Shown here in pieces: positions 18,027 to 30,117 of a DNA stretch of 64,000 nucleotides (its first letter is position 1; each line of letters opens with the position of its first letter). Both the position numbers and the translations under genes were made by a program. Under the pieces are notes generated by a model. The model worked only from the letters and a program-made list of their open reading frames with translations. It searched no databases and was not told the origin of the DNA. The stretch is taken from contig JBAZJY010000003.1 in NCBI GenBank assembly GCA_041651115.1, forward strand, positions 3,188 through 67,187. Direction: 5' to 3'. Origin of the DNA: Candidatus Omnitrophota bacterium. GTDB lineage: Bacteria; Omnitrophota; Gorgyraeia; Gygaellales; Profunditerraquicolaceae.

Positions 18027-18736
18027 GATTTAAAATACCGGATTATTCTGTCTAATTCGTCGGATATCCTTTTAATATCGGTTAAGTGGCTACGCTTGTG
18101 CTCCGGAAGCTCACCCTCGGAAAGCTTATCCATTTTTTCTTTCAAAGAACCGAAATTAAGCTTAAGCAAATTGATCTGCTCCCTGTTCTTTGCGATCATG
18201 CTATTGAATGCGTTTGTCACGTCCTGCAGCTGGTCAAGCTTGCGGGTCTGGAATTCCGAACAATAATCGCCTCCCTCTACTGCCTTTAGCACTTTTTTAA
18301 ACCGAAAAAGCGGGCCGGCGATCTTATGCGAAATAAACAATGTCACGGCGATCGTAGCAATGCCGACAATTATCCCTACCACCACTACCGTTTGAACCAG
18401 CACCGGCAGGATAAAGTCTGCGGTGGAACGCACCAGCACGCGCGAATGCACAACCGAAACCGTGGTAGAGCGCATTGCCAGGAGGTAAACGCCGCCTACG
18501 GTAAGGATACCTCCCAAGAAAACCAGGGAGCAGAACTTTAAAATAAAATCCGTCTGGAATTTTTTACCGATAAAATAATTCCCGCGCTTGTAAGTTTTGG
18601 CTGCTTCCGCCATCTTAGTCTCCCTCTGCACAGAAAGTGCGCACCAAACCATTCCAGCAGTAAGCGACACTTGCCCATCCTCTAGGGCAAGGTGCCTATT
18701 GGTTTGGGTGTTATTTATTATCTGCTTTAAGGTCAA
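18023..18736 (-). CDS. two-TM membrane protein with HAMP domain and C-terminal coiled coil (real start probably internal ATG near 18613)
   Basis: TM1, periplasmic segment, TM2 (VVVVGIIVGIATIAVTLFISHKIAGPL), then an LFRFKKVLKAVEGGDY...NAFNSMIAKNRE HAMP-like amphipathic helices. No kinase or MCP output domain. The first 41 codons overlap the upstream gene. Confidence 0.45.
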   Translation of the reverse strand: MTLKQIINNTQTNRHLALEDGQVSLTAGMVWCALSVQRETKMAEAAKTYKRGNYFIGKKFQTDFILKFCSLVFLGGILTVGGVYLLAMRSTTVSVVHSRVLVRSTADFILPVLVQTVVVVGIIVGIATIAVTLFISHKIAGPLFRFKKVLKAVEGGDYCSEFQTRKLDQLQDVTNAFNSMIAKNREQINLLKLNFGSLKEKMDKLSEGELPEHKRSHLTDIKRISDELDRIIRYFKS

Positions 18737-19313
18737 GCAGGTTCAAGTTCAGCTTGGTGTCGGCTTGGCTGCGCAACGAAGCCATCCAATCACCCAGTAT
18801 ACGGCTCTCTTTTACGCGGGTAAGCTCCCATTTGATCTGATTATAGAGCTGATCATAGGGCTTATCGGTTTTCCCCTCTTCTTTTAACTTATTATATACT
18901 GCTTCGATCTCTTTATCCGTAACAACTACCGCTCCGGCAACCTCTTTTGCTTTCCTGTCCAGGGTCAATTTTAAAAGCGACTGCTCCCAGAAGCGCTCCA
19001 CCATTTTAAGGAAGTCCTTATCCCTGTCAATGCCCTTTGCCTCGGCATCCTGGAGGATAACCTTGCGGTTGATCAGCATATTCAGGAATTCCTTCCGGGA
19101 ATCGGGAGTATCGATCCTGCCGTAGGCTGAAAGCTTGAATTCTTCGTCAAATTCTTCCTTTGTAATTTCATAATTATTGATCTTGGCAAGGATCTCTTTG
19201 TTTTTAGGCGCTTGCTTTGCGCATCCGCAGATAACAAATACTACCAATAATAAAAAGGCAATTAATCTCTTCATTGCCGGCTCCTTTCCTGGTAAATTTA
19301 CATCATTATACAA
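18711..19313 (-). CDS. lipoprotein with SurA N-terminal-like chaperone domain
   Basis: MKRLIAFLLLVVFVICGC lipobox-like signal. KINNYEITKEEFDEE...RKVILQDAEAKGI resembles the SurA_N / PpiD N-terminal chaperone module. Confidence 0.45.
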   Translation of the reverse strand: MYNDVNLPGKEPAMKRLIAFLLLVVFVICGCAKQAPKNKEILAKINNYEITKEEFDEEFKLSAYGRIDTPDSRKEFLNMLINRKVILQDAEAKGIDRDKDFLKMVERFWEQSLLKLTLDRKAKEVAGAVVVTDKEIEAVYNKLKEEGKTDKPYDQLYNQIKWELTRVKESRILGDWMASLRSQADTKLNLNLLDLKADNK

Positions 19314-19352: not shown

Positions 19353-22300
19353 TTACTTCAAAAACGGCAGCAAGCCTTCATGGCCGAGGATGTTTATCCG
19401 GCCGTCAATAAACTCATAGGCGTCTTCTTCAAGTATGAACTGATCAAAAGCAGAATAATCAGCGCTTACCAGAGGATGATAGAAATAAACCACCGGCATA
19501 AGGGTAAAAGTATTTATCCGGTATAAAGCCATATCTGTCTCGCTAAGCACCGGCTTAAGCAGCGCGTCAGCAGTTGCCAATTGAGAGATAACCGCAGGTA
19601 ATGATCCGGTAATATTAAAATTACCCGATGTTATAGCACTTAAACCTGCCGCAGAAGCAGTCAGCGCATAGCCGGTACCTGGCAGGTTAATGAATAAGTC
19701 GCCAAAAGTAACTACTCCGCCTGAAGCAGTGTGGGTGAGCGTTCCGGAAAGAGCTGCTCCGGAAGGATTAATGCCAAGTGCAATACTCACGGAAGTCGCA
19801 TTATCCGTGCTGGCAGTATTGCCGAATTGATCTCTAAGCGTAATGGTTATTGCCGGCGCGATCAACGTATTAAAATCAACGCTGGACGGCTGCTGGCTAA
19901 ATACCATTATAGCCGCAGCAGCAGGGTTCACGGTTACTGCCAAAGGAACCGATGTAGTAACCGCACCCTGCGTTGCGGAGATCGCGGCGCTTTCCGCGTT
20001 ATATAATACTGCGCTGCCTCCGCTGGTTGAAACGCCGTTAGTAAAAGTAACCACGGTATTTGCGCCAAAACTTATTGCTGCGCCGTTCTTATCCGTGACC
20101 GTAGGAACGAAGCTGCCAATAGAATTTGCTCCGCTAAAGACCAGGGTTTTGTCTCCGGAGTAAGACAAGGCTGTGCCGCCGACCCCGTCAATTGCCGTGA
20201 TCGTCAGGAGATTGGCTGCCCCGGCATTCTGTGAGCCGGAGCCGGAGACTACGAAATGGTCCACCAGGTTCCAGTTAGTATTATTGCCGCTGTCTTTTGA
20301 GCTTGTTGCCGTTATCACAGAAGCGTTGATATTATTTGAATCTTTTACATCTACAAAAGAAACACTGCGGCTTCCTTGCGGATCGATCAGCCATTGCGAG
20401 CCGCTTACTGAACTGCGCAGGATGATCAGGTTACCCGATGTGCCGGTAAGTGTCAACGCTCCGTTAATAGTCAGCGTTGTGCCTGCGGTAAAGGTAACCT
20501 GATTACCCGCGGATACGGTAAAGCTTCCGGTAACAAGCTTATCGCTTAACGAGGCAAACGTCGCCTTGTTGGTATTGGTATCATTAATGCTCAAATTAAA
20601 GTAGTCCGTTGCCCCGAAATCTTTGATCGTAATGGTTTCCGCGATATTCCTGCCTACATATTCCCAGGTTCCGGAGTCAGTATCATTCACTGTCCAGGAT
20701 ACGGTTTCTATTCCCTGCAGCCGCAAGGTACCGTTATTCACGAAAGAAGTGGTAGTGGTAATATTAAATCCGTTAAGATAAAGCACCCCCGAGCTGATCG
20801 TCAGGGTGCCGTTTATATCCAGGTTATTATTGATCAGCGTAACTACCGCTCCGCCGGATTTATTAATCACTAAATCCTGGAAATCGTCGCCTGCAGCAAC
20901 GCCGCCTGAATCAAGCGTAGAATTAATTGAACCGTCAAACGTAACTATGCTATCCTGGGAATTAAACGTTGCGGAATTTGACCAATTACCGGCAACGTTA
21001 ATACTAAAATCGGACGCACTTGTATTAAGTGTGCCGCCTGAGATCGTCAAATTGCCGTCTACATCAAGATTACCGGCAAGGGTTGAGGTACCACCGGTGA
21101 ATTCAATATTATCAAATGCCATAGTGGTTGAGGTCCCCTGTCCGTCTATAGTATTCGCGCCGTTAAAGACCACAAGCGAATTATTGGTAGTAGCGTCCAC
21201 TGTTCCCGCGATATAAGTCCAGGCTCCTGCGCCTGCCCCATTTATGCGGATCGTACCTGCCAGCGTTAAAGTGCCTGCGCTCTTATTAATCGTCAAATCA
21301 GGCAGCTCGCCGGCGCTGACCGTAGCATTGCCGGTAAAAAGCTGGTTGGCAGATCCCGTGATCTGAAGCAGCGCAGAGCCGCCATCAGTCAAACTTCCCT
21401 GGATCAGATCTCCCTGCACATTAATAGTTCCGGTATTGATCGTTCCATCGGTATAGGTAAAAGTACCGGTTATAGTAAGCGTAGTGCCGCTTGCGATTAC
21501 CCTGGTCCCGGCATTATTGAAAGTCACATTATTCAGGGTATGCGAACCCGTAATAGTCATACCGCCGTCAAATACCAGCGTGCTTGAGCCGGTATTCAGC
21601 GTCCCTGCCGTATATGTCCAGGCATTCGCGCCCTGCCCATTGGTACGGATAGTGCCGGCGAGGAAAAGCGTACCGCTGGCCTTGTTGATCGTAACATCGG
21701 GTAATTCGCCTGCCGTTGTAGTGGCGCTGCCGGTAAAAGTCTGATCAGAAGCGCCGTCAATAATCAGCGTAGCTGTGCCTCCGTCAAACGTGGATAATTG
21801 AACAATATTCCCGCGCGCGGAAACTGTGCCGGAATTAATACCGCCGTCGGTCAACGTAAGAGTTCCCATAATAATAATCGTATCTGCTGCAGCTACTGTC
21901 TTGTTTGCGGTAGAATTAAAATTTACATTGTGGAATGTTTCGGTGGTAAGCACATTGATCGTGGCGCCTGCGCCGCTAAAAGTAACGCTGCTGGTACCCT
22001 CGTTAAACGCGCCTGCGCCGGAAATAGTAAAATTATTGGCAATGTCAAGATTAGCTGAACCCGCGTTAAATATGCCTGTGCCTGAAGCAGCAAAGTTATT
22101 CGCTATGTTTATATTGCCGGTACCTGCATTGAAAGTGCCGCCGGAAACGCTAAAATTACGGCTTACTGTCAAAGTTTGACCGCCTAAATTAACCGTACCT
22201 CCTGCCTGGCTGAAATCCCTGACTGAAAGCGAACGCTCAAAAGTAATAGTGCCTGTATAACCCGAACCGATCAACAGGTCGCGGATCGTGCCGGCAAAGG

Positions 22301-24035
22301 CTGCGTCTACAATAGAATCTTTGGTTGAGGTAGCGTCAAAGGTCGCGTCAGTAGTAGAGATTGGCAGGGTATTGCCTGACCAGTTATCCGCGTCAGACCA
22401 GTTATTGGTAGTACCGCCGCCGTCCCAGGTAGGGTCAATTTCAAAATTAACGTTGTTTCCCGCGTCAACGCCGATCGGGATAATAACGGTATTTAACGCG
22501 TAGGCATCACGGATATTCACTCTTTCAAGGAGATATCCTGCAGCCTGAAGGTCCAGATACCAATATTCGCCTGCCTGGCTTGAACGCAGTTTAATGAAAA
22601 ATTCTTCAGGGCCGATATCAACAGCGCCGATTATACTCAAGCTTCCTTTAAAAGTATATGTCTTTCCCGCTTCAAAATATATTTCTTTATCGGGGATCGC
22701 TAAATTGAGATTATAAAAAGTAATATTTCCGTAAAGATATACGGGTTCATTTCCTAAAAAGCTTACTTCTGCTGCCTCTAATGTAAGGCTTGAGCCTTTA
22801 TCATAGAGGATCGCGCCGAATCCATCCGGAGGACCGCGCAGCAACACACTTGTGCCGATGCCTAAGCTTTCCAATATATCTATGTTGCCTAATGACCGGA
22901 TAAAATGAATATGCTCCGCGTCAATTGCGATAGGAAAACCTGCTGCGCCAAGGCTCCTGGCAGTGATATTTACTTCACTTGCCCGGATAACCACAGCTAA
23001 AGTTGCCACGTCAGCTAAAGGATCGCTGTTTAAAGTCGTCTTTATGTTTTCAGCTTCAATAACTACTTCTCCGCCAACAGCTTCTATTAAGCCATCCTGG
23101 ATTACGTCTGCTGCCTTTATATAAACCGCTCCGGCCCCTGCTTCTAACGCCCCGGCATTAATCACCGGAGCGCCTTCGGCTACCAGCTCAATTATCCCAT
23201 TATTGCTTACAAGGTTAGTTGCCTGGATTATACCTGAATTATTGATCGCGTGATCAAAGATATGATTCAAAGCTTTGACGGCTAAAATTACTTTGCCTCC
23301 CGGATTAAGGATTGTCCCGCTATTGCGAACGGCCGAGCTTAATTTTTCGCCGTCAAAGCCAAATATTTCTTCTTTTACAGCTTCATCGATCACTACGGAA
23401 ATCATGCCGGCAGTATCAAGATTAAGGGTGATCTTCTCTCCGGCTGCCAGGACTACCGAGCCTAATGTCGTTTCAATGGTGCCGGCATTAGCTACCGCAG
23501 AGCCCAATAAAACCGCCTGTCCGCCTTCCCTTATTTTTATGTAGCCGTTATTTATTACCGGCTTGCCTACTTTATCTACCCATTTAGTAAAAATATAATT
23601 TGAAGAAAGGAAATCGCTGTTTTGTATATTTAATGTGGAAGCGATAATGCCTGCGGCATCTATCCTTGCCAATGGGCCGATATTTATGCCGTTGGGATTG
23701 ATCAGATAAATTATGCCGTTTGCGCTAAGCGTGCCGAATATGCCGCTTATTTGGTCGCCCAAAACGCGGTTCAAGGCAGCAGAGGTTGCGGACGGCTGAT
23801 AAAAATAAACCGATTCGCCGGCTGCAATGCTAAAACTGTTATAATCAATGATTAATTTATCGGAAGGAGTGGTGATCTTAAGGATGTTCGGTTCGGAGCG
23901 GTCAAAACTGGCGCTACCCTCAATTATGCTTTCTCCTTCAGGAAGGGCAAAAGCAGAATTCAGGCTGATAAGCCAAAGGCTTACCAGTGCCAGTATCCAT
24001 ACGCTTATCTTTTTAACTCTATGCACCCTCAACAT
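19353..24035 (-). CDS. two-partner secretion exoprotein TpsA (filamentous-haemagglutinin family), 1560 aa, beta-helical with internal tandem repeats
   Basis: Signal peptide. N-terminal TPS domain (IIDYNSFSIAAGESVYFYQPSATSAALNRVLGDQISGIFGTLSANGIIYLINPNGINIG) with the NPNGI motif. Long Gly/Thr/Asn-rich beta-helix region with two ~133-aa tandem repeats. C-terminal 50 aa shared with the 24980..26581 protein. Confidence 0.8.
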   Translation of the reverse strand: MLRVHRVKKISVWILALVSLWLISLNSAFALPEGESIIEGSASFDRSEPNILKITTPSDKLIIDYNSFSIAAGESVYFYQPSATSAALNRVLGDQISGIFGTLSANGIIYLINPNGINIGPLARIDAAGIIASTLNIQNSDFLSSNYIFTKWVDKVGKPVINNGYIKIREGGQAVLLGSAVANAGTIETTLGSVVLAAGEKITLNLDTAGMISVVIDEAVKEEIFGFDGEKLSSAVRNSGTILNPGGKVILAVKALNHIFDHAINNSGIIQATNLVSNNGIIELVAEGAPVINAGALEAGAGAVYIKAADVIQDGLIEAVGGEVVIEAENIKTTLNSDPLADVATLAVVIRASEVNITARSLGAAGFPIAIDAEHIHFIRSLGNIDILESLGIGTSVLLRGPPDGFGAILYDKGSSLTLEAAEVSFLGNEPVYLYGNITFYNLNLAIPDKEIYFEAGKTYTFKGSLSIIGAVDIGPEEFFIKLRSSQAGEYWYLDLQAAGYLLERVNIRDAYALNTVIIPIGVDAGNNVNFEIDPTWDGGGTTNNWSDADNWSGNTLPISTTDATFDATSTKDSIVDAAFAGTIRDLLIGSGYTGTITFERSLSVRDFSQAGGTVNLGGQTLTVSRNFSVSGGTFNAGTGNINIANNFAASGTGIFNAGSANLDIANNFTISGAGAFNEGTSSVTFSGAGATINVLTTETFHNVNFNSTANKTVAAADTIIIMGTLTLTDGGINSGTVSARGNIVQLSTFDGGTATLIIDGASDQTFTGSATTTAGELPDVTINKASGTLFLAGTIRTNGQGANAWTYTAGTLNTGSSTLVFDGGMTITGSHTLNNVTFNNAGTRVIASGTTLTITGTFTYTDGTINTGTINVQGDLIQGSLTDGGSALLQITGSANQLFTGNATVSAGELPDLTINKSAGTLTLAGTIRINGAGAGAWTYIAGTVDATTNNSLVVFNGANTIDGQGTSTTMAFDNIEFTGGTSTLAGNLDVDGNLTISGGTLNTSASDFSINVAGNWSNSATFNSQDSIVTFDGSINSTLDSGGVAAGDDFQDLVINKSGGAVVTLINNNLDINGTLTISSGVLYLNGFNITTTTSFVNNGTLRLQGIETVSWTVNDTDSGTWEYVGRNIAETITIKDFGATDYFNLSINDTNTNKATFASLSDKLVTGSFTVSAGNQVTFTAGTTLTINGALTLTGTSGNLIILRSSVSGSQWLIDPQGSRSVSFVDVKDSNNINASVITATSSKDSGNNTNWNLVDHFVVSGSGSQNAGAANLLTITAIDGVGGTALSYSGDKTLVFSGANSIGSFVPTVTDKNGAAISFGANTVVTFTNGVSTSGGSAVLYNAESAAISATQGAVTTSVPLAVTVNPAAAAIMVFSQQPSSVDFNTLIAPAITITLRDQFGNTASTDNATSVSIALGINPSGAALSGTLTHTASGGVVTFGDLFINLPGTGYALTASAAGLSAITSGNFNITGSLPAVISQLATADALLKPVLSETDMALYRINTFTLMPVVYFYHPLVSADYSAFDQFILEEDAYEFIDGRINILGHEGLLPFLK

Positions 24036-24103: not shown

Positions 24104-24886
24104 TCAGGATTTTTTGCGGATAAAATCCGCTATTTTCACCTCCAATTCAATCGGCAAGTCACGGCATTCCAAGAACTTAGCGACTTTGATCGCTTTAGAG
24201 TATTTGCTCAGGAATAATTTGCATGGCCGGCAGTCTTTAATATGCCTATCAAAGGCTTTTTTGCGGGTCTTGCCTAAAGAACCGCGGCTATAGTTATATA
24301 CGAACCCTTCCCAGATGCTGCAGCGGGGGTTTTCCTCTTCATTTTTCTCCAGTTTATCCTTAAAATAATCCTTTGTTTCCGCGGCAAGCATCATCTCTGC
24401 CCTGCGCAGCCTTGTCCTGAATGATGCTTCCTTAAGCTTTAAAACCGCAGCCGCGGCTTCACCCGGCATACGTTCAACATAGTGCAGCACCAAAGGCATA
24501 CGGTATTCAATCGGCAGCTGCTTGATCGCGTTATCAACCCGCTGCCGGAATTCGACATCAAGCGCCTGTTCATCAGGCATTTTTGACCAGTTAACGAACA
24601 GCCCGGAAAGCTCCTTCTTTGTCCCGTCTTTAAAACCGTCAATCAGCTTGAAGCGGCTTGAACGCTTTCGCAGATACATCAACGCTTCATTATAGGCGAT
24701 CTTATATATCCAGGTAGAAAGGTATTCGCGGTTCTTCAGCTCTTTAATGTTATCAATGATCTTCACGAATACGGACTGCACCACGTCTTCAGCATCAGTC
24801 TGATTCCTGGTAATGCTCAAGGCAAGGCCGTAGATCTTATTTTTATAGTTCTTGAAGATCTCTTCTATTTTGATTCGTGGCTTCAT
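24104..24886 (-). CDS. ECF-type sigma-70 factor fused to a C-terminal zf-HC2 anti-sigma domain
   Basis: Region 2 (DAEDVVQSVFVKIIDNIKELKNREYLSTWIYKIAYNEALMYLRKR). Region 4 (LPIEYRMPLVLHYVERMPGEAAAAVLKLKEASFRTRL). Then FDRHIKDCRPCKLF, the HxxxCxxC anti-sigma zinc finger. No TM segment. Confidence 0.7.
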   Translation of the reverse strand: MKPRIKIEEIFKNYKNKIYGLALSITRNQTDAEDVVQSVFVKIIDNIKELKNREYLSTWIYKIAYNEALMYLRKRSSRFKLIDGFKDGTKKELSGLFVNWSKMPDEQALDVEFRQRVDNAIKQLPIEYRMPLVLHYVERMPGEAAAAVLKLKEASFRTRLRRAEMMLAAETKDYFKDKLEKNEEENPRCSIWEGFVYNYSRGSLGKTRKKAFDRHIKDCRPCKLFLSKYSKAIKVAKFLECRDLPIELEVKIADFIRKKS

Positions 24887-24979: not shown

Positions 24980-26581
24980 TTACTTTATGCCTTCAAGGAT
25001 CGGAAGCAAGCCCTGATGGCCTTTGATGTTGAGCGAACCTTCAATGAAGTCATAGGCGCCTTCTTCAAGGACAAATTCATCAAACCCGTTCATTGCCGAA
25101 GCAGTGATCGGATGATAGAAATATACCAATCTCGGGTCAACCGCATTATACTGCCAAACGGCAAACTGCTCGTTATAAGGCAAGCCTTCCTTGCCCCACA
25201 AATCGCTCGCAGAAACCCGGGGAGTAGGATCCGGCTCAGGCGGTAAATCCGGGTAGGTGGCAAAGCTTGAGGCAAAACGTATTACAGCATCATCAAAATC
25301 CTGATCCCCGCCGTTGGGATAATCCTCAAACCCATATATGACTCCAGTCTCTTTTACATGATCCTGTTTTGAACCGCTGTTAAGGGAAGATTCTTCATAC
25401 CAGATATAATCATTCTTCCCGTTCTGGAAAATACAATACAGCTTAAACTCAGTGGCATCTAAAGAAGTCTGACCTGTTCCAGAACCACTCTTGATATCTT
25501 TTCCCGGAAGAGCCTGAGCAAAAGGCACGCGCGTAAGCACACCATTATCATAATAGTAATAGCCGAGTTCAATCAATTTAAAACCCCTTGAACCGCTCAA
25601 ATACTCCCATGAAAACACGCCTAAGCTATCTATCTCGCTGCTGTTAAAGCCGGAAACCAGCATGCCGGTATTTGTGACGTCATCAATTATCGGGTCGCCT
25701 TCTGCCACCAACTCGATCACGCCGTTATGATTTACAAGGTTGATTGCCTGAATAACTCCGGTGTTATTAATCGCATAATCAAAAATACCATTAAGGATCT
25801 CAGCATTTAAAATAACTTTCCCGCCGTCAGCACGGATCACACCGGAATTTTTTATCGCACATTTCATACCCAGTACGTCATTCTTCACCACATCATCGAT
25901 GACTACGGATATCGTGCCCGCAGGATCAAGGTTAAGGGTCATTTTTTCTCCTGCTGCCAAAACTACGGTGCCGAGATCAGCAATGATCACCCCGCGGTTT
26001 TCAACTGCCTGCGACAAAAGGCAGACATAACCGCCGTTATTAACATTAATATTGCCTTCGTTAATAATGGAGCCGTCTACTCCGACCTTTTTTAAAAAAT
26101 TATACGCCCCAAGACGGAAATCCGCATCGCTAATCTCAAGGGTAGAAGCAACTAATGCGGGGGCGTCAACGCGTGAACCTGCGCCAAAGATTACACCATT
26201 AGGATTAACTACAAAGATCTTTGCGGTTTCAGAATAGAGCGTACCGAGGAAATTCGTAGGGCTGCCGTTTGCAATACGGTTTAAAACTGTTGAGCCTCCG
26301 TAAAAATTTACCGCTTGGCCTGAATCAGTATCAAAGGTACCCCAATTAATAATTGCGTTGGCTGAAGGATTAGTAATCACGACATCAACTTTAGTATCGG
26401 GAACAGTAGTGACAACAGCTAAACCACTGGTAATATCATCTCCACTTGCCCCGGACGGCAAACAAAACGCCAATGCAGGAGTAATTAAAGTAAGGATTAT
26501 TGCAGCTAAGATTCTTTTATGACGGGCCATTTTGAAGGTCTCCTTATAGTTATGAAAACGCTTTCTTTTTAGCACGAACAA
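24980..26581 (-). CDS. second TpsA-family exoprotein, 533 aa (TPS domain + distinct middle + shared C-terminal tail)
   Basis: Signal peptide. TPS domain (IINWGTFDTDSGQAVNFYGGSTVLNRIANGSPTNFLGTLYSETAKIFVVNPNGVIFG). Region through NHNGVIELVAEG collinear with the large TpsA. Last ~50 aa (VYFYHP...FDEFVLEEGAYDFIEGSLNIKGHQGLLP) about 60% identical to the large TpsA C-terminus. Confidence 0.75.
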   Translation of the reverse strand: MFVLKRKRFHNYKETFKMARHKRILAAIILTLITPALAFCLPSGASGDDITSGLAVVTTVPDTKVDVVITNPSANAIINWGTFDTDSGQAVNFYGGSTVLNRIANGSPTNFLGTLYSETAKIFVVNPNGVIFGAGSRVDAPALVASTLEISDADFRLGAYNFLKKVGVDGSIINEGNINVNNGGYVCLLSQAVENRGVIIADLGTVVLAAGEKMTLNLDPAGTISVVIDDVVKNDVLGMKCAIKNSGVIRADGGKVILNAEILNGIFDYAINNTGVIQAINLVNHNGVIELVAEGDPIIDDVTNTGMLVSGFNSSEIDSLGVFSWEYLSGSRGFKLIELGYYYYDNGVLTRVPFAQALPGKDIKSGSGTGQTSLDATEFKLYCIFQNGKNDYIWYEESSLNSGSKQDHVKETGVIYGFEDYPNGGDQDFDDAVIRFASSFATYPDLPPEPDPTPRVSASDLWGKEGLPYNEQFAVWQYNAVDPRLVYFYHPITASAMNGFDEFVLEEGAYDFIEGSLNIKGHQGLLPILEGIK

Positions 26582-26776: not shown

Positions 26777-28480
26777 CTAGAACGTTTTGGAAACTTCCGC
26801 CCAGGTTTGCACGCCTTTTCCGTCAGACGGCTTCTGGTCCAGAGGCCAGGCAAATTCTACGCGCGCGCTGAAATCTTCCGGTAAATTAATGCGCAAACCG
26901 CATCCCGCGCCTCTTAAGGTCTTATTCTTCTGTTCTCCTGCCTGCGGCCTTCTTAACCTGACATTTGCCCAGTCATAAAAAGTAACGATCCTTACCGCAT
27001 CATAGATTTTTGCCTTTGAAAGCGGGAATCCGATGGACTTCGGCACAAAATACGGCGGGATTGACCATTCCCAGGTCATGGAATAACCATTATCGCCTAC
27101 TGCTTCCGCAGCCGGATAACCGCGCACGTTGACAATGCTGCCGATCTGAAACTGTTCTGTAGAAGTAAGGATATTGGGGGTAAGCTGTATCTGGTTTTTC
27201 CAGTATATGGAAGAATCAAACGGCAGTTTCTGGCGATGTAAAAGGTTTATTATCTCTTTGGTAAACTCCCCGCCTGCGCCGTCGCGGGACGCGCGGGTAT
27301 CGCGCTTCTTCAAGCCTGCCATAATATCCGGGATGCCATAATCAAATTCTGCCATAAGCAGCGTGCGGCTTAACCTGGTGGTAACATCCCAGTCAAAGCC
27401 TATGCGGCTGATGCGCAGCCGGTCGCGGCTGGTTTCCTCTCCTGCCTGGAAATTAAAAACATCCTTGTAATCAAAACCAAGGTTTAAGACTAAATTGCTA
27501 TTCTCGTTATTGACTAATATCTGCTGGGCATAAACGCCATAGATCCGGCTCTTGCCGCGGACATTCAGGTCCTCAAATTCTTTTTGCAGCTTGATCCGTG
27601 AGTTTGCGGCTACAAAGCCGATATTCAGGTCTCTGGTTACCGGCAGGATATAACGGCCGCTCAACAAAACATAATTTTCGCCTTCCGAGCCCTGATAATT
27701 AACCTCCAGGCTGTCGTCAAAGCCTAAAAGGTTATTATGCGTAAGCGTAGTTTTAAAACGATTGTAATTAATATAGCGCGAGCCAAAATTATCCCAGGCA
27801 AGGCCCAAATGTATGGGCAGGCGGTCCTTTACCTCTACCAGCACATCGGTTGTCCCGGGGTCTTTGCCCGGAGCAATGACTGCCTTAGCGTTACGGTCTG
27901 CCTGTTCATTGATCAGGCTTAAGCCTTCGCGCAATTTTTCGTAATTAAAAGGCTGCCCCTTTTTAAGCGCGATCTTACGCTGATACAGGGAAGATTTAAA
28001 GAACCGGTTACCTTTTATTTCTACGTCGCCGGTAATTCCTTCCAGGACTTTTACTTCAAGGTTTCCGCTTTCAATTTTTTGCGGGGGCAGGTAGGCGCGG
28101 GAAGTAACAAAGCCTTTCCTGCGGTAGATATCGGTGATCATGTCTACCATCTTCTGCATATCCTTAAGCATAAGCTCTTTGTTTTTGAATTCCGCGGTAA
28201 CCGCATTGATCTCGTCTTCCGTAATAAGCGTAGCGCCGGTTACGGTAATACTCGTAACCATGACTTTTTCGGTTGACTCCGGGAGCCGGGGCTGCGCAGC
28301 CTGAGGCTCTTCCTCAATTTCCGCCTTTGGGCTGGGCTTATCAAACTTTTCCTGCAACCGTATTTCCTTGTCAATCTTACGCTGGGACGTAGAAATCGTG
28401 CCCGCCTCGTCAGCGGCATATACAAAACCAAACGCAAAGATAAAAACTAAACCTAAAAGAATCGCGGGCGCCTTTTTCAT
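26777..28480 (-). CDS. TpsB outer-membrane transporter (ShlB/FhaC family; POTRA domains + 16-strand beta-barrel)
   Basis: Start assigned to the internal ATG at 28480 (MKKAPAILLGLVFIFAFGFVYA signal peptide; AGGAGG SD 8 nt upstream; ATGA overlap with the upstream stop). POTRA-like VTSITVTGATLITEDEI...DIYRRKGFVTSRAYLPPQKIESGNLEVKVLEG. Ends ...WAEVSKTF with the aromatic terminal residue typical of OMPs. Confidence 0.8.
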   Translation of the reverse strand: MKKAPAILLGLVFIFAFGFVYAADEAGTISTSQRKIDKEIRLQEKFDKPSPKAEIEEEPQAAQPRLPESTEKVMVTSITVTGATLITEDEINAVTAEFKNKELMLKDMQKMVDMITDIYRRKGFVTSRAYLPPQKIESGNLEVKVLEGITGDVEIKGNRFFKSSLYQRKIALKKGQPFNYEKLREGLSLINEQADRNAKAVIAPGKDPGTTDVLVEVKDRLPIHLGLAWDNFGSRYINYNRFKTTLTHNNLLGFDDSLEVNYQGSEGENYVLLSGRYILPVTRDLNIGFVAANSRIKLQKEFEDLNVRGKSRIYGVYAQQILVNNENSNLVLNLGFDYKDVFNFQAGEETSRDRLRISRIGFDWDVTTRLSRTLLMAEFDYGIPDIMAGLKKRDTRASRDGAGGEFTKEIINLLHRQKLPFDSSIYWKNQIQLTPNILTSTEQFQIGSIVNVRGYPAAEAVGDNGYSMTWEWSIPPYFVPKSIGFPLSKAKIYDAVRIVTFYDWANVRLRRPQAGEQKNKTLRGAGCGLRINLPEDFSARVEFAWPLDQKPSDGKGVQTWAEVSKTF

Positions 28481-29238
28481 CGCTGTCCCTCCTTTTTGTC
28501 TAAACTTGTAATTTCGCTTTTTATGCAAACTTCAAGAATGTCACCTTTAATTTCTGTTGTTATTTCATCGGCTGCCAGCTTAACGCCTTTTTTCTCATAA
28601 GCCTGCGTAAGCGCGCCGGCTATCTGGTTGATATCGTCTTCAGTCAGCCAGTGCCCTTCAAGCGGCGGAATGATCTCCCCGATTTCTTTTTCATTGAGCA
28701 ATTCGGCGCCTTTTATGCTGATTTTTTTAACGAATACTTTGTCCGGGCTATTGATCTTTTGCCTTAGCGCCGCCTCTTCTTCAAGCAACTCCTCAAACCG
28801 CGCTATTTCGCCGGCGGTTTTTTGCGCAAAGCAAAGAGGTATACCGCCATCGATAATATTGGCAATCCTTTTTGCAAATAAAGCATAACCTACGGCAAGC
28901 GCGTTCAGGCAGGCGATCAAAGAAACTGCCGCGGCAATGTCTTTAACCAGCTTTATCAGGATATGATACTTGCGGGTAGTCATATCAATCATCATTTCAA
29001 TTGCCGTATTGAAGATCTCCGCCATAAATACGAGAGTGATGGTAATGCATAGCGCGATCAATTCAAGGCCGTTTAATCCAAAATAGACGCCCAAAAGGAA
29101 TGCCGCGACCCCGAGCATGAACATGATGCGCATATTGCGGTGATAAAGGAACAGATAGCCGACGCCTTGCGCTGCCAGCCGCATGCTTTGAAAAAATCCC
29201 GTGAAACGGAAGATATGCTTAAGTACCCGCTTTTTCAT
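28477..29238 (-). CDS. prokaryotic diacylglycerol/undecaprenol kinase (DgkA) fused to a C-terminal POTRA-like periplasmic domain
   Basis: N-terminal 125 aa has three TM helices and the DgkA signature EIFNTAIEMMID plus KDIAAAVSLIACLNALAVGY. C-terminal 125 aa (VFVKKISIKGAELLNEKEIGEII...DDINQIAGALTQAYEKKGVKLA...GDILEVCI) is collinear with the POTRA_2 region of the adjacent TpsB. Start TAATG overlaps the acsE stop. Stop overlaps the tpsB start. Confidence 0.6.
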   Translation of the reverse strand: MKKRVLKHIFRFTGFFQSMRLAAQGVGYLFLYHRNMRIMFMLGVAAFLLGVYFGLNGLELIALCITITLVFMAEIFNTAIEMMIDMTTRKYHILIKLVKDIAAAVSLIACLNALAVGYALFAKRIANIIDGGIPLCFAQKTAGEIARFEELLEEEAALRQKINSPDKVFVKKISIKGAELLNEKEIGEIIPPLEGHWLTEDDINQIAGALTQAYEKKGVKLAADEITTEIKGDILEVCIKSEITSLDKKEGQR

Positions 29239-30026
29239 TATTTTTTTCTATACGCGTCCAAATAAGAATCGCAATAAATATGCTTATTGAGGATCAATTC
29301 CGCGGTTATCGCTGAATCTACAAGCTCTTTATCTTTAGGATCCATTATAGCAGCATCTAAGCCATAAGCAACTGCCATTGTTAAGAACGTGCGGTTGATC
29401 AAACCACGCACACAGCTGCCCTGCGATACGTTGCTTAAGCCCAGGATTGTCTTGGGCGAAGGCTCGGAGATAATCTTAAATTCACGGATAGATTCCAGAA
29501 TGTCTAGCATCTGCGGCTGGGCAACGTTCACCGGCAGCACGATCGGATCAAGAAAAAGGTCATCAATAGCAAAACCCTGGTCAACGCAGGTAGAGACAAT
29601 AGTTGCTGCCAGTTCCAGGCGCTGGTCTTTATTCTGCGGAATGCCTTTTGCGCTTATGGTGATGCCGATCAGCCTGGCCTTATATTGCTTTGCCAACCCT
29701 ACCAAAACCTCTAATTTGTCCGGATCAGCAGTAGTAGAATTGATGATCGGCCTGCTCTTTATCACTTTTAAGCCGGACTCAATGACTTTAGGCTTGCTGG
29801 AATCAAGCGCCAGCGGCTTATCGGTTACTTCCTGTATGGTTTCCACCAGCCACTGAATATCGGAAACCGGGTCGCGCGACACCGGGCCGCAATTCACATC
29901 TAAAGCGTCTGCGCCTGCCTCAACCTGTTCAAGCGCGCATTTTTGTATGGCTGACTTATCGTGCTCCTTGATCGCTTTGCCGATATTCTGATACATCCCA
30001 TTGATCAGCTCGCCGATTATGAACAT
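29238..30026 (-). CDS. acsE: methyltetrahydrofolate:corrinoid/iron-sulfur protein methyltransferase AcsE (pterin-binding MeTr)
   Basis: MFIIGELINGM...DVNCGP...INSTTAD...LGLSNVSQ...IYCDSYL matches AcsE/MeTr. Start placed at ATG 30026 (AAGGAG SD 7 nt upstream) rather than the TTG at 30056, which lies inside a palindromic repeat. Confidence 0.75.
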   Translation of the reverse strand: MFIIGELINGMYQNIGKAIKEHDKSAIQKCALEQVEAGADALDVNCGPVSRDPVSDIQWLVETIQEVTDKPLALDSSKPKVIESGLKVIKSRPIINSTTADPDKLEVLVGLAKQYKARLIGITISAKGIPQNKDQRLELAATIVSTCVDQGFAIDDLFLDPIVLPVNVAQPQMLDILESIREFKIISEPSPKTILGLSNVSQGSCVRGLINRTFLTMAVAYGLDAAIMDPKDKELVDSAITAELILNKHIYCDSYLDAYRKK

Positions 30027-30040
30027 ATAGCTCCTTAGAT

Positions 30041-30117
30041 TAGGGACGGTTCTCAACTCAAAGCTAAAGTGTCCCCCCTACGGGGACACTTTACGATTGG
30101 CTTGAGAACCGTCCCTA
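30041..30117. repeat. ~76-bp nested palindromic intergenic element, copy 1 (REP/MITE-like)
   Basis: TAGGGACGGTTCTCA...GTGTCCCC-CCTAC-GGGGACAC...TGAGAACCGTCCCTA. 15-bp perfect terminal inverted repeats plus an inner 8-bp hairpin. A second copy with identical termini is at 61018-61093. Confidence 0.6.

Follow-up and report, generated by a model that had tools for sequence, protein, structure and literature searches.

A diacylglycerol kinase continued in frame by a barrel-less TpsB-type POTRA module, upstream of a two-partner secretion operon in Candidatus Omnitrophota

The POTRA domains of TpsB transporters such as FhaC bind the unfolded TPS domain in two-partner secretion (TPS), and the plug helix H1 of these transporters is mobile and dispensable; the linker of FhaC is required for activity and takes up the site on POTRA2 where substrate binds (PMC5422565). 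According to a survey of the Omp85/TpsB superfamily published in 2014, POTRA domains were known only at the N termini of those barrel proteins and in FtsQ (PMC4104836). DgkA is a trimer with its active site at the membrane/cytosol interface (PMC4703834). Here, we analyzed a 64,000-nucleotide (nt) stretch of Candidatus Omnitrophota DNA (contig JBAZJY010000003.1; the whole stretch is called the window), in which one open reading frame (ORF) of 253 amino acids (aa) at 28477..29238 (minus strand) joins a DgkA to a mini-POTRA module and is followed by tpsB. This fused ORF was delimited from the ORF list, Pfam matches, and an exact look-up (NCBI MFA5157028.1); L-numbers and P-numbers below denote loci and proteins that were compared with it. 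Our favored explanation, to which we assign a probability of roughly 0.6, is that the ORF is a real, lineage-specific, in-frame fusion of neighboring genes, in which the third transmembrane (TM) helix of DgkA (TM3) serves as export signal and the module works with the secretion system. The fusion itself is most likely opportunistic.

The DgkA part (residues 1-124; 28867..29238, minus strand) comprises an N-terminal amphipathic cytoplasmic helix and three TM helices, and the Pfam family DAGK_prokar (PF01219) matched residues 21-121 over profile positions 2-102 of 102, i.e., at full length, with 91.1 bits against a cut-off of 22.3 (E value of 4.5e-26). It resembles E. coli DgkA (PDB 3ZE3 and 2KDC) and bacterial DgkA/undecaprenol kinases in this full-length match, in the three TM helices, and in the essential residues E69, N72, E76, D80, K94, and D95, which correspond at an offset of +5 to E74, N77, E81, D85, K99, and D100 upon alignment with the PDB sequence; it is unlike E. 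coli DgkA in that the window protein carries a C-terminal extension of ~130 residues. The extension begins with a linker (residues 125-138, IANIIDGGIPLCFA; 28825..28866, minus strand), the C-terminal end of which fits the signal peptidase I motif of the module's family, C-F-A|Q (the bar marks the predicted cut). The mature N terminus and a charged helix follow (residues 139-165, with the helix at 142-162; 28744..28824, minus strand), as delimited by BLASTP against TpsB and by AlphaFold2 (AF2), and then a POTRA domain of the TpsB POTRA1 type with a beta-alpha-alpha-beta-beta order (residues 166-240; 28519..28743, minus strand), recognized by Pfam, AF2, and Foldseek. More specifically, POTRA_2 (PF08479) matched residues 170-218 with 31.6 bits against a cut-off of 24 (E value of 1.4e-7), spanning only positions 3-51 of the 76 in the profile; the general Pfam POTRA profile reached 20.3 bits, slightly below its cut-off, and an NCBIfam scan of the fused ORF gave only sub-threshold BamA-type matches. 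A sequence-only reading of the window had proposed a complete DgkA followed by a TpsB-type POTRA domain, and this was borne out, as both profiles scored above threshold, POTRA_2 being the match found in the C-terminal half. The fused protein has no barrel and no second POTRA domain, and its chain ends 14 residues after the single POTRA domain; it therefore lacks the hallmark of TpsB/Omp85 proteins, i.e., a 16-stranded barrel (PF03865 or PF01103) after two POTRA domains.

Hydropathy analysis placed three hydrophobic segments in the ORF (centers at ~44-58, 60-72, and 101-114) and none beyond residue 124, and the first 37 residues hold eight K/R and zero D/E. From this charge bias, together with the cytosol-facing active site, we infer an N-in/C-out orientation of the DgkA part and a periplasmic POTRA domain. 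Hydropathy, charge bias, and the AF2 helices thus agree with the sequence-only reading on three TM helices and a periplasmic C terminus. In the AF2 model (mean predicted local distance difference test score [pLDDT] of 80), three long helices make up the DgkA half, residues 131-141 are disordered (pLDDT of <50 at 135-138), a helix occupies 142-162 (pLDDT of 81-88), and the beta-alpha-alpha-beta-beta fold spans 168-239 (pLDDT of 91-95) with strands at 168-176, 226-231, and 234-239 and helices at 183-189 and 200-216. The C-terminal half is thus predicted to adopt a POTRA fold rather than to be disordered. The model was built on a 19-sequence alignment of POTRA-family rows only, which left the DgkA half without alignment depth (pLDDT of 65-85); a joint alignment of DgkA and POTRA homologues set POTRA leaders onto DgkA wrongly and was left unused. 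In Foldseek searches against the PDB, the top matches were CdiB, BamA POTRA domains, FhaC, and the TpsB4 POTRA domain (probability of ~1.0, root mean square deviation of 2.3 to 3.7 Å over ~75 residues), and DgkA 3ZE4 stood lower in the match list. Their E values were 2e-3 or weaker (none ≤0.001), so that the fold matches support the Pfam and AF2 results but are not independent proof. An inner-membrane N-in/C-out TM helix followed by a periplasmic POTRA domain also occurs in FtsQ/DivIB, which the uncleaved fusion would resemble. In contrast to the module, however, the FtsQ-type POTRA domain is not POTRA_2, its function lies in the divisome and it has no link to TPS operons, whereas the window context consists of acs and TPS operons; no FtsQ-family profile matched the fused ORF in the Pfam or NCBIfam scans.

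The module was compared by BLASTP with its cognate TpsB, a 567-aa protein encoded directly downstream (26777..28480, minus strand), in which Pfam and sequence inspection delimit a signal peptide, an H1-like helix, a linker, POTRA_2, POTRA, and a ShlB barrel. The two align with 23% identity over 141 columns (E value of 6e-7); the likeness that had been read from the letters is therefore real but modest. The alignment path runs through the c-region of the signal peptide (LCFA|QKTAG versus FVYA|ADEAG), the N-terminal helix, and POTRA1, with a gap of 21 residues at the position of the TpsB linker, and the charged helix of the module (residues 139-165) corresponds to the H1-like N-terminal helix of TpsB (TpsB residues 19-51). 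Judged by this alignment, the C-terminal module is a barrel-less paralogue of the N terminus of the adjacent TpsB (c-region, H1-like helix, and POTRA1), i.e., a paralogue of part of TpsB and not TpsB itself. It shares with the N termini of FhaC, CdiB, and ShlB (plug helix H1, linker, and POTRA1) this alignment, the TpsB-specific POTRA profile POTRA_2, the Foldseek matches to CdiB and FhaC, and the tpsB-tpsA operon. Unlike them, it is without beta-barrel, POTRA2, and the ~21- to 30-residue linker, and it forms a separate small secreted protein or, here, an appendage of an inner-membrane enzyme, next to a TpsB that is itself complete. The BcpO protein of Burkholderia (bcpAIOB) is likewise the product of a small extra gene in a TPS operon and may be needed for the function of its TpsA partner (PMC5422565); unlike the extra gene of the window, which encodes a paralogue of the transporter's N terminus, BcpO is predicted to be a lipoprotein or cytoplasmic and has not been described as having a POTRA domain.

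The C-terminal half belongs to a family of small proteins. With that half alone as query, one protein was retrieved, P0001 (146 aa, 59% identical; leader, helix, and POTRA), and profile searches extended the family to ~50 clusters at 90% identity, nearly all of 102 to 164 aa and of the same leader-helix-POTRA organization, with mature proteins of ~105 aa. Their source labels read "POTRA domain-containing protein" or "hemolysin activation/secretion protein," and members are precomputed as PF08479, with or without PF07244. When 1.84 billion representatives were searched exhaustively with the full-length query, no protein matched both halves, and at least 18 representatives matched only ~residues 132-241. 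The taxon names attached to members are all Omnitrophota/Omnitrophica, except for one partial entry labeled Deltaproteobacteria. Aligned with that of the window, 33 mature modules gave an almost gap-free alignment (one or two single-residue internal gaps), in which Y214 is invariant and eight to ten more positions, including W197 and L198, are nearly so.

An export signal, in some form, is present in almost every complete member, the exception being P0015, an N-terminally shortened copy of P0008, and a cleavage-type motif x-F-A|Q is conserved across the family. Within this motif, C136 and F137 are invariant in the first five aligned sequences, though not family-wide, and Q139 is nearly invariant in 19 members; P0010, P0011, P0014, P0016, and P0027 have G, S, or Y in place of the Cys at -3, and the position preceding -3 is occupied by L, F, V, A, T, or N. 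A lipoprotein reading of the conserved Cys was rejected, since no lipobox L-[AS]-[GA]-C is present and the Cys stands at -3 and varies. The motif fits a signal peptidase I site, and the stand-alone small-POTRA proteins would be secreted by that route and not as lipoproteins.

These features bear on the idea that the family is nothing but the decaying remnant of a partial tpsB duplication, without a function of its own, in which case the fusion would be noise. Its origin from the 5' end of tpsB is clear, and the family is small, fast-evolving (30 to 60% identity), and unstudied, as such an idea would expect. Nevertheless, we consider it very improbable, given ~50 clusters of intact ORFs of near-constant length, the almost gap-free alignment, in whose core one position is invariant and about eight to ten more are nearly so, the confidently predicted fold, the export signal retained in almost every complete member, and a place and orientation before tpsB that is kept in all ten loci described next, despite their varied upstream context.

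We scanned one genome per species and found 24 Omnitrophota loci with a close DgkA, most of which show the order cdhD-acsE-dgkA. Among the distinct members of the small-POTRA family with readable downstream DNA, tpsB lies directly downstream of the module in 10 of 10 (the window, L003, L008, L009, L021, L027-29, L030-32, L034/35, L036/37, and L038). What lies upstream differs from locus to locus. In L003, L009, L021, and L034/35, dgkA is followed in another frame by a separate small-POTRA gene with its own signal peptide and then by tpsB and tpsA; these separate dgkAs encode ~128 aa and end in F-x-[KR]-R-x-x-K, and the junction between the two genes is a stop/start overlap in L009 and L021 and a short gap in L003 and L034. 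Two unrelated genes stand between dgkA and the POTRA gene in L008. In L030-32, represented by three independent assemblies, dgkA is followed by five polysaccharide genes, the last of which, a GT2 glycosyltransferase with C-terminal TM helices, is itself fused in frame to the module (P0043, 416 aa; ...APAYA|QSSAS...) ahead of tpsB and tpsA. A further fusion, P0179, joins a response-regulator receiver (REC) domain to a module that keeps its own hydrophobic signal core (...GLAIILFFLFLWWGAKNICFA|QTPP...; motif NICFA|QTPP). No dgkA is found nearby in L027-29, L036/37, or L038: a tRNA and a non-coding gap lie upstream of the module gene in L027, and ParA-like and MamF-like genes in L036 and L038. 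P0001, which comes from the same sample as the unfused DgkA P0022 (JGI 3300075153), is encoded downstream of an epimerase gene, with a 4-nt overlap with the next gene. Outside the window, every member seen has either its own leader or another upstream partner. The constant unit is thus small-POTRA, tpsB, and tpsA, with a variable upstream gene, and the constant partner of the module is tpsB, not dgkA.

The sequence-only reading had further suggested that the fusion might couple lipid recycling to secretion, and here the comparison lent it no support. The dgkA and POTRA genes are adjacent but separate in L003, L009, L021, and L034, the module occurs without a nearby dgkA in L027, L036, and L038, DgkAs that are ~90% identical to that of the window (P0022 and P0023) are unfused, and the same module is carried by GT2 and REC proteins; what ties the module to lipid metabolism is gene order alone. 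Its other suggestion, that the POTRA module hands over TpsA, may hold, but the role would then be one of the small-POTRA family at large rather than of the fusion.

The closest unfused relatives locate the junction precisely. P0022 (128 aa) and P0023 (129 aa) are 89 to 91% identical to the DgkA part of the window, fall in the same 90% cluster, and have normal ends. Behind the P0023 gene in L026 come an epimerase gene and then tilS with an MscS-like gene; this latter pair is also present in the window, downstream of the TPS island, and the DNA homology between L026 and the window stops exactly at the last DgkA codon, at position 28867. Two metagenome scans yielded no further relatives. As a side observation, a representative search returned P0024 (164 aa), in which a DgkA 53% identical to that of the window continues for ~40 K/R/E/G-rich residues; this tail resembles an out-of-frame translation of a small-POTRA gene, so that the dgkA/POTRA junction may be altered in another lineage as well.

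That two genes were joined by an assembly or sequencing error, or that the locus was freshly broken by a deleterious deletion and is non-functional, appears highly unlikely to us. To be sure, relatives have two genes, the fusion is known from one population only, and the available copies are all identical and may share overlapping read sets. Against this, the same junction is present in data from several assemblers and sources: the exact 253-aa protein is also found in NCBI (MFA5157028.1, "MAG: diacylglycerol kinase," Candidatus Omnitrophota), JGI, and ENA, the ORF is carried on a 198-kb ENA contig assembled with MEGAHIT, and the Logan per-run assembly of SRR8542065 is 100% identical over 3794 nt, junction included. 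A single-base frameshift artefact was ruled out. The other two frames at the junction hold stops and lack a signal peptide, so that a single-base error would not restore two genes and no single indel recovers a start codon with a signal peptide; the junction is, moreover, ~29 nt shorter than its counterpart in L009. The fusion is exactly in frame, the conserved residues of both halves are all intact, and translational coupling to tpsB is kept. The concern, raised alongside the sequence-only reading, that a sequencing error had artificially joined two ORFs is thus answered by the stops in the other frames and by the identical junction in these assemblies.

Both ends of the fused ORF overlap its neighbors, as the sequence-only reading had noticed. 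Its ATG (29238-29236) overlaps the acsE stop TAA (29240-29238) as TAATG, its stop TGA (28479-28477) overlaps the tpsB ATG (28480-28478) as ATGA, and a Shine-Dalgarno sequence for tpsB, AGGAGGG (28487..28493, minus strand), lies within the fused ORF near its 3' end, with 6 nt between it and the tpsB ATG. Promoter and terminator scans gave nothing informative between acsE, the fused ORF, and tpsB. We also looked for an internal start from which the module might be translated separately: in-frame ATG and GTG codons are absent between residues 86 and 139, and neither M86 nor TTG107 is preceded by a Shine-Dalgarno sequence.

The favored reading, a fusion of neighbors that is exported by TM3, can be put as the following sequence of events. 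One gene would be dgkA, the conserved last gene after acsE in Omnitrophota, and the other the mini-POTRA gene, which encodes a small secreted protein and forms part of the tpsB-tpsA secretion operon. The window lineage would have lost the dgkA stop, the mini-POTRA start, and the hydrophobic core of the mini-POTRA signal peptide, so that TM3, which by topology should run from cytoplasm to periplasm, would now export the module. The window linker keeps PLCFA|QK (C136-F137-A138|Q139, with P134 at -5), and the precursor is probably cut after A138, as this retained motif suggests, yielding a DgkA with a short periplasmic tail and the usual mature mini-POTRA. A C-F-A|Q-type site is kept here and in the GT2 and REC fusions, which makes it probable that signal peptidase separates the halves, and because cleavage would give the same products as the two-gene state, the fusion would be nearly neutral. 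The likeliest role of the module would be binding of the unfolded TPS domain of TpsA, or docking on the POTRA arm of TpsB, in both cases by beta-augmentation, as is usual for POTRA domains; both downstream TpsA proteins (516 and 1560 aa) come into view as substrates, for which the module could be a holdase or a receptor.

If uncut, the module would hang from the trimeric kinase on a linker of ~45 residues. This leads to a different account, in which the fusion is an adaptive, uncleaved, tethered receptor: the DgkA trimer would display three POTRA domains that catch TpsA on its exit from Sec and hand it on to TpsB, or would couple the kinase to secretion. The topology sets the module in the periplasm, DgkA is trimeric (PMC4703834), the ~45-residue linker and the helix could reach toward the outer membrane, and the predicted cleavage site is unusually far from the TM helix; in addition, the TM3-derived leaders of P0037, P0001, and P0027, described below, would represent a DgkA-derived anchor kept over 40 to 60% divergence. 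Although this account is a serious alternative, we regard it as rather doubtful, since most of the family carries an ordinary, cleavable signal peptide and lacks an anchor, dgkA is a separate gene from the POTRA gene in four genomes, the DgkAs of ~90% identity end without a module, GT2 and REC, which are unrelated to DgkA, carry the same module, and the -3/-1 cleavage motif is kept in every fused form. Furthermore, P0001, P0027, and P0037 retain DgkA TM3 only, with the kinase gone, which argues that kinase activity is not what is kept.

The leaders of these three proteins resemble DgkA residues 86-125, i.e., the last cytoplasmic turn and TM3. Smith-Waterman comparison of leader and DgkA gave z scores of 9 to 10 for P0037, ~6 for P0027, and 4 to 5 for P0001, compared with -2 to +2.5 for ~25 other leaders; against the DgkA of the window, at most 1 of 500 shuffles reached the leader score, and 0 of 1000 did so in a repeat. 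P0001 and P0037 both start with a Met that falls on DgkA M86 in the alignment. At least P0037, P0027, and P0001 hence carry what looks like a 5'-truncated DgkA remnant as export signal, and it appears from this resemblance that several lineages use DgkA TM3 for export. Two histories are possible: the dgkA::POTRA fusion may be older than the window lineage, with P0037, P0027, and P0001 as truncated descendants, or partial duplications of dgkA may have given rise to their leaders; under both, DgkA TM3 evidently functions in export of the module. In a neighbor-joining tree of the modules, the window, P0001, and P0027 group at 97% bootstrap.

Several points weigh against the favored reading of an opportunistic, nearly neutral fusion that is resolved by signal peptidase. 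Between the end of TM3 and the A138|Q139 site lie about 14 to 17 residues, a longer distance than ordinary signal peptides show, and the module may therefore stay tethered. In P0001, P0027, and P0037, the TM3-like leaders suggest that a fused state may be old and long kept, which, if so, would speak against a merely neutral accident; adding P0037 to the module tree lowers the bootstrap to 28 to 32%, with P0032 and P0037 next at weak support. All copies of the fusion are identical and from one population, and the closest other genome, L002 (88% identity), ends at residue 107. Finally, the role of the module in secretion is proposed from homology and gene order.

One candidate origin of the linker IANIIDGGI was tried, namely that "ANIIDGG" is a remnant of the N terminus of the epimerase ("KNILIAGG") whose gene stands between dgkA and the POTRA gene in L026 and on the P0001 contig, which would imply a 1.2-kb deletion. 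The DNA match of 15/17 nt scored 10 against 6.6 ± 1.3 for shuffles (P of ~0.03 on 90 nt), and equal or better chance matches occur elsewhere in L026; because the match is not significant, this idea was dropped as an explanation and reduced to a weak lead. Weaker likenesses between leaders and DgkA TM3 were seen for P0118 (z score of 4.4, with L003-type TM3) and P0170 (z score of 3.7; P0170/P0181), the P0005 leader "LFLASINL" resembles "LLASLNAL" of the dgkA directly upstream, and a conserved Asn reappears throughout the family at -5/-6 relative to the cleavage site. These may reflect chance, or a deeper link between the signal peptides of the family and DgkA TM3.

A wider proposal, which we offer as a tentative possibility, is that TPS in Omnitrophota is a three-partner system: a barrel-less paralogue of the TpsB N terminus would act as a periplasmic TPS-domain receptor or holdase for very large TpsAs, or as a POTRA domain that docks on TpsB, its export signal could come from any upstream protein, and in the window it would perhaps be tethered and span the periplasm. 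The export signal would be borrowable in this way (DgkA TM3, a GT2 TM helix, or REC with the module's own signal peptide) because only the periplasmic location matters. What emerges is a TPS operon whose third component is POTRA-only and at times fused to its upstream neighbor, and the pairing of the small-POTRA family with tpsB is of more interest than the fusion. The literature that we searched describes no DgkA-POTRA fusions, barrel-less POTRA partners in TPS operons, or Omnitrophota TPS systems, in line with the suspicion from the sequence that the fusion was undescribed; the NCBI entry is labeled "diacylglycerol kinase" only. If the proposal holds, the secretion pathway regarded as the simplest would gain a third component, in the form of a conserved family of TpsB-type POTRA proteins that lack a barrel and whose genes immediately precede tpsB, and this family would offer a natural "POTRA in trans" reagent for periplasmic recognition of TPS domains. 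The fusions would indicate that a C-out TM helix of any upstream protein can stand in for a signal peptide, and, if signal peptidase resolves them, that a gene fusion can be all but neutral in a tightly packed genome. Because the hosts are uncultured, practical use is limited, although tests in a heterologous host are feasible.

The DgkA half departs from the E. coli enzyme at two sites. E28 and E34 are among the residues that affect catalysis in E. coli DgkA, with E28 involved in metal/ATP binding and E34 proposed as a pKa switch (PMC4703834); their equivalents in the DgkA of the window are H33 and M39. The Omnitrophota orthologues examined (the window, L003, L009, L021, L008, P0022, and P0023) have His and Met/Ile at both sites, in the motif "YHRNMRI[IM]F." As the residues are common to all unfused orthologues examined, H33/M39 is, as far as this alignment goes, a trait of the lineage and not a decay caused by the fusion. 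Since His and Met/Ile replace E28 and E34, the active site or the substrate of DgkA in this lineage may differ.

Around the fused ORF, the acsE-like methyltransferase gene (Pterin_bind in Pfam; 29238..30056, minus strand) is the last gene of the acs cluster before dgkA. A hairpin at 30065-30093 (minus strand) with a perfect 12-bp stem (TAAAGTGTCCCC GTAGG GGGGACACTTTA) covers the CdhD-like gene's stop codon together with the stretch between that gene and acsE; as no T-run follows, it may be an element of mRNA processing or stability and not a terminator. Beyond tpsB lie tpsA-1 (516 aa, with a TPS domain and DUF4114 by Pfam and gene call; 24980..26530, minus strand) and tpsA-2 (1560 aa, with a TPS domain by Pfam; 19353..24035, minus strand). 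The C-terminal ends of the two TpsA proteins (19356-19493 and 24983-25120, minus strand) share ~46 residues at 57% identity with the pattern ...YFYHP...F(D/N)xFxLEE(D/G)AY(E/D)FI(D/E)G...GH(E/Q)GLLP..., and their central regions are unrelated; the shared stretch may be a common sorting, anchoring, or processing element. A gene for an extracytoplasmic function (ECF)-type sigma factor (Sigma70_r2 and r4_2; 24104-24886, minus strand), with a C-terminal extension of ~90 residues that holds Cys/His pairs, stands between both tpsA genes, and the gene that immediately follows the large tpsA (18711-19313, minus strand) specifies a 200-aa protein whose N-terminal part is a SurA-like chaperone domain and which may be a further periplasmic helper of the same secretion system.

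Similar side observations were made at other loci. In L036 (840-3412) and L038 (508-3704), small-POTRA and tpsB are preceded by a ParA-like ATPase with CBM48/AMPK1_CBM, a MamF/MmsF-like membrane protein, and several ORFs of 60 to 90 aa, which form a recurrent neighborhood. For L027 and L028, two Logan runs disagree on the tpsB beside P0037 (871-2598), which is split into genes of 172 and 384 aa in one and is a single 575-aa gene in the other; this reflects either strain variation or an assembly error, and the contigs of L027 and L028 start inside a tRNA-like sequence with an AT-rich gap, which hints that the TPS cluster lies on an island by a tRNA gene. Downstream of tpsB in L034 (GCA_041643025.1; 6908-8384 and beyond), a 4072-aa ORF with no Pfam hit on record presumably encodes a giant TpsA-like substrate.

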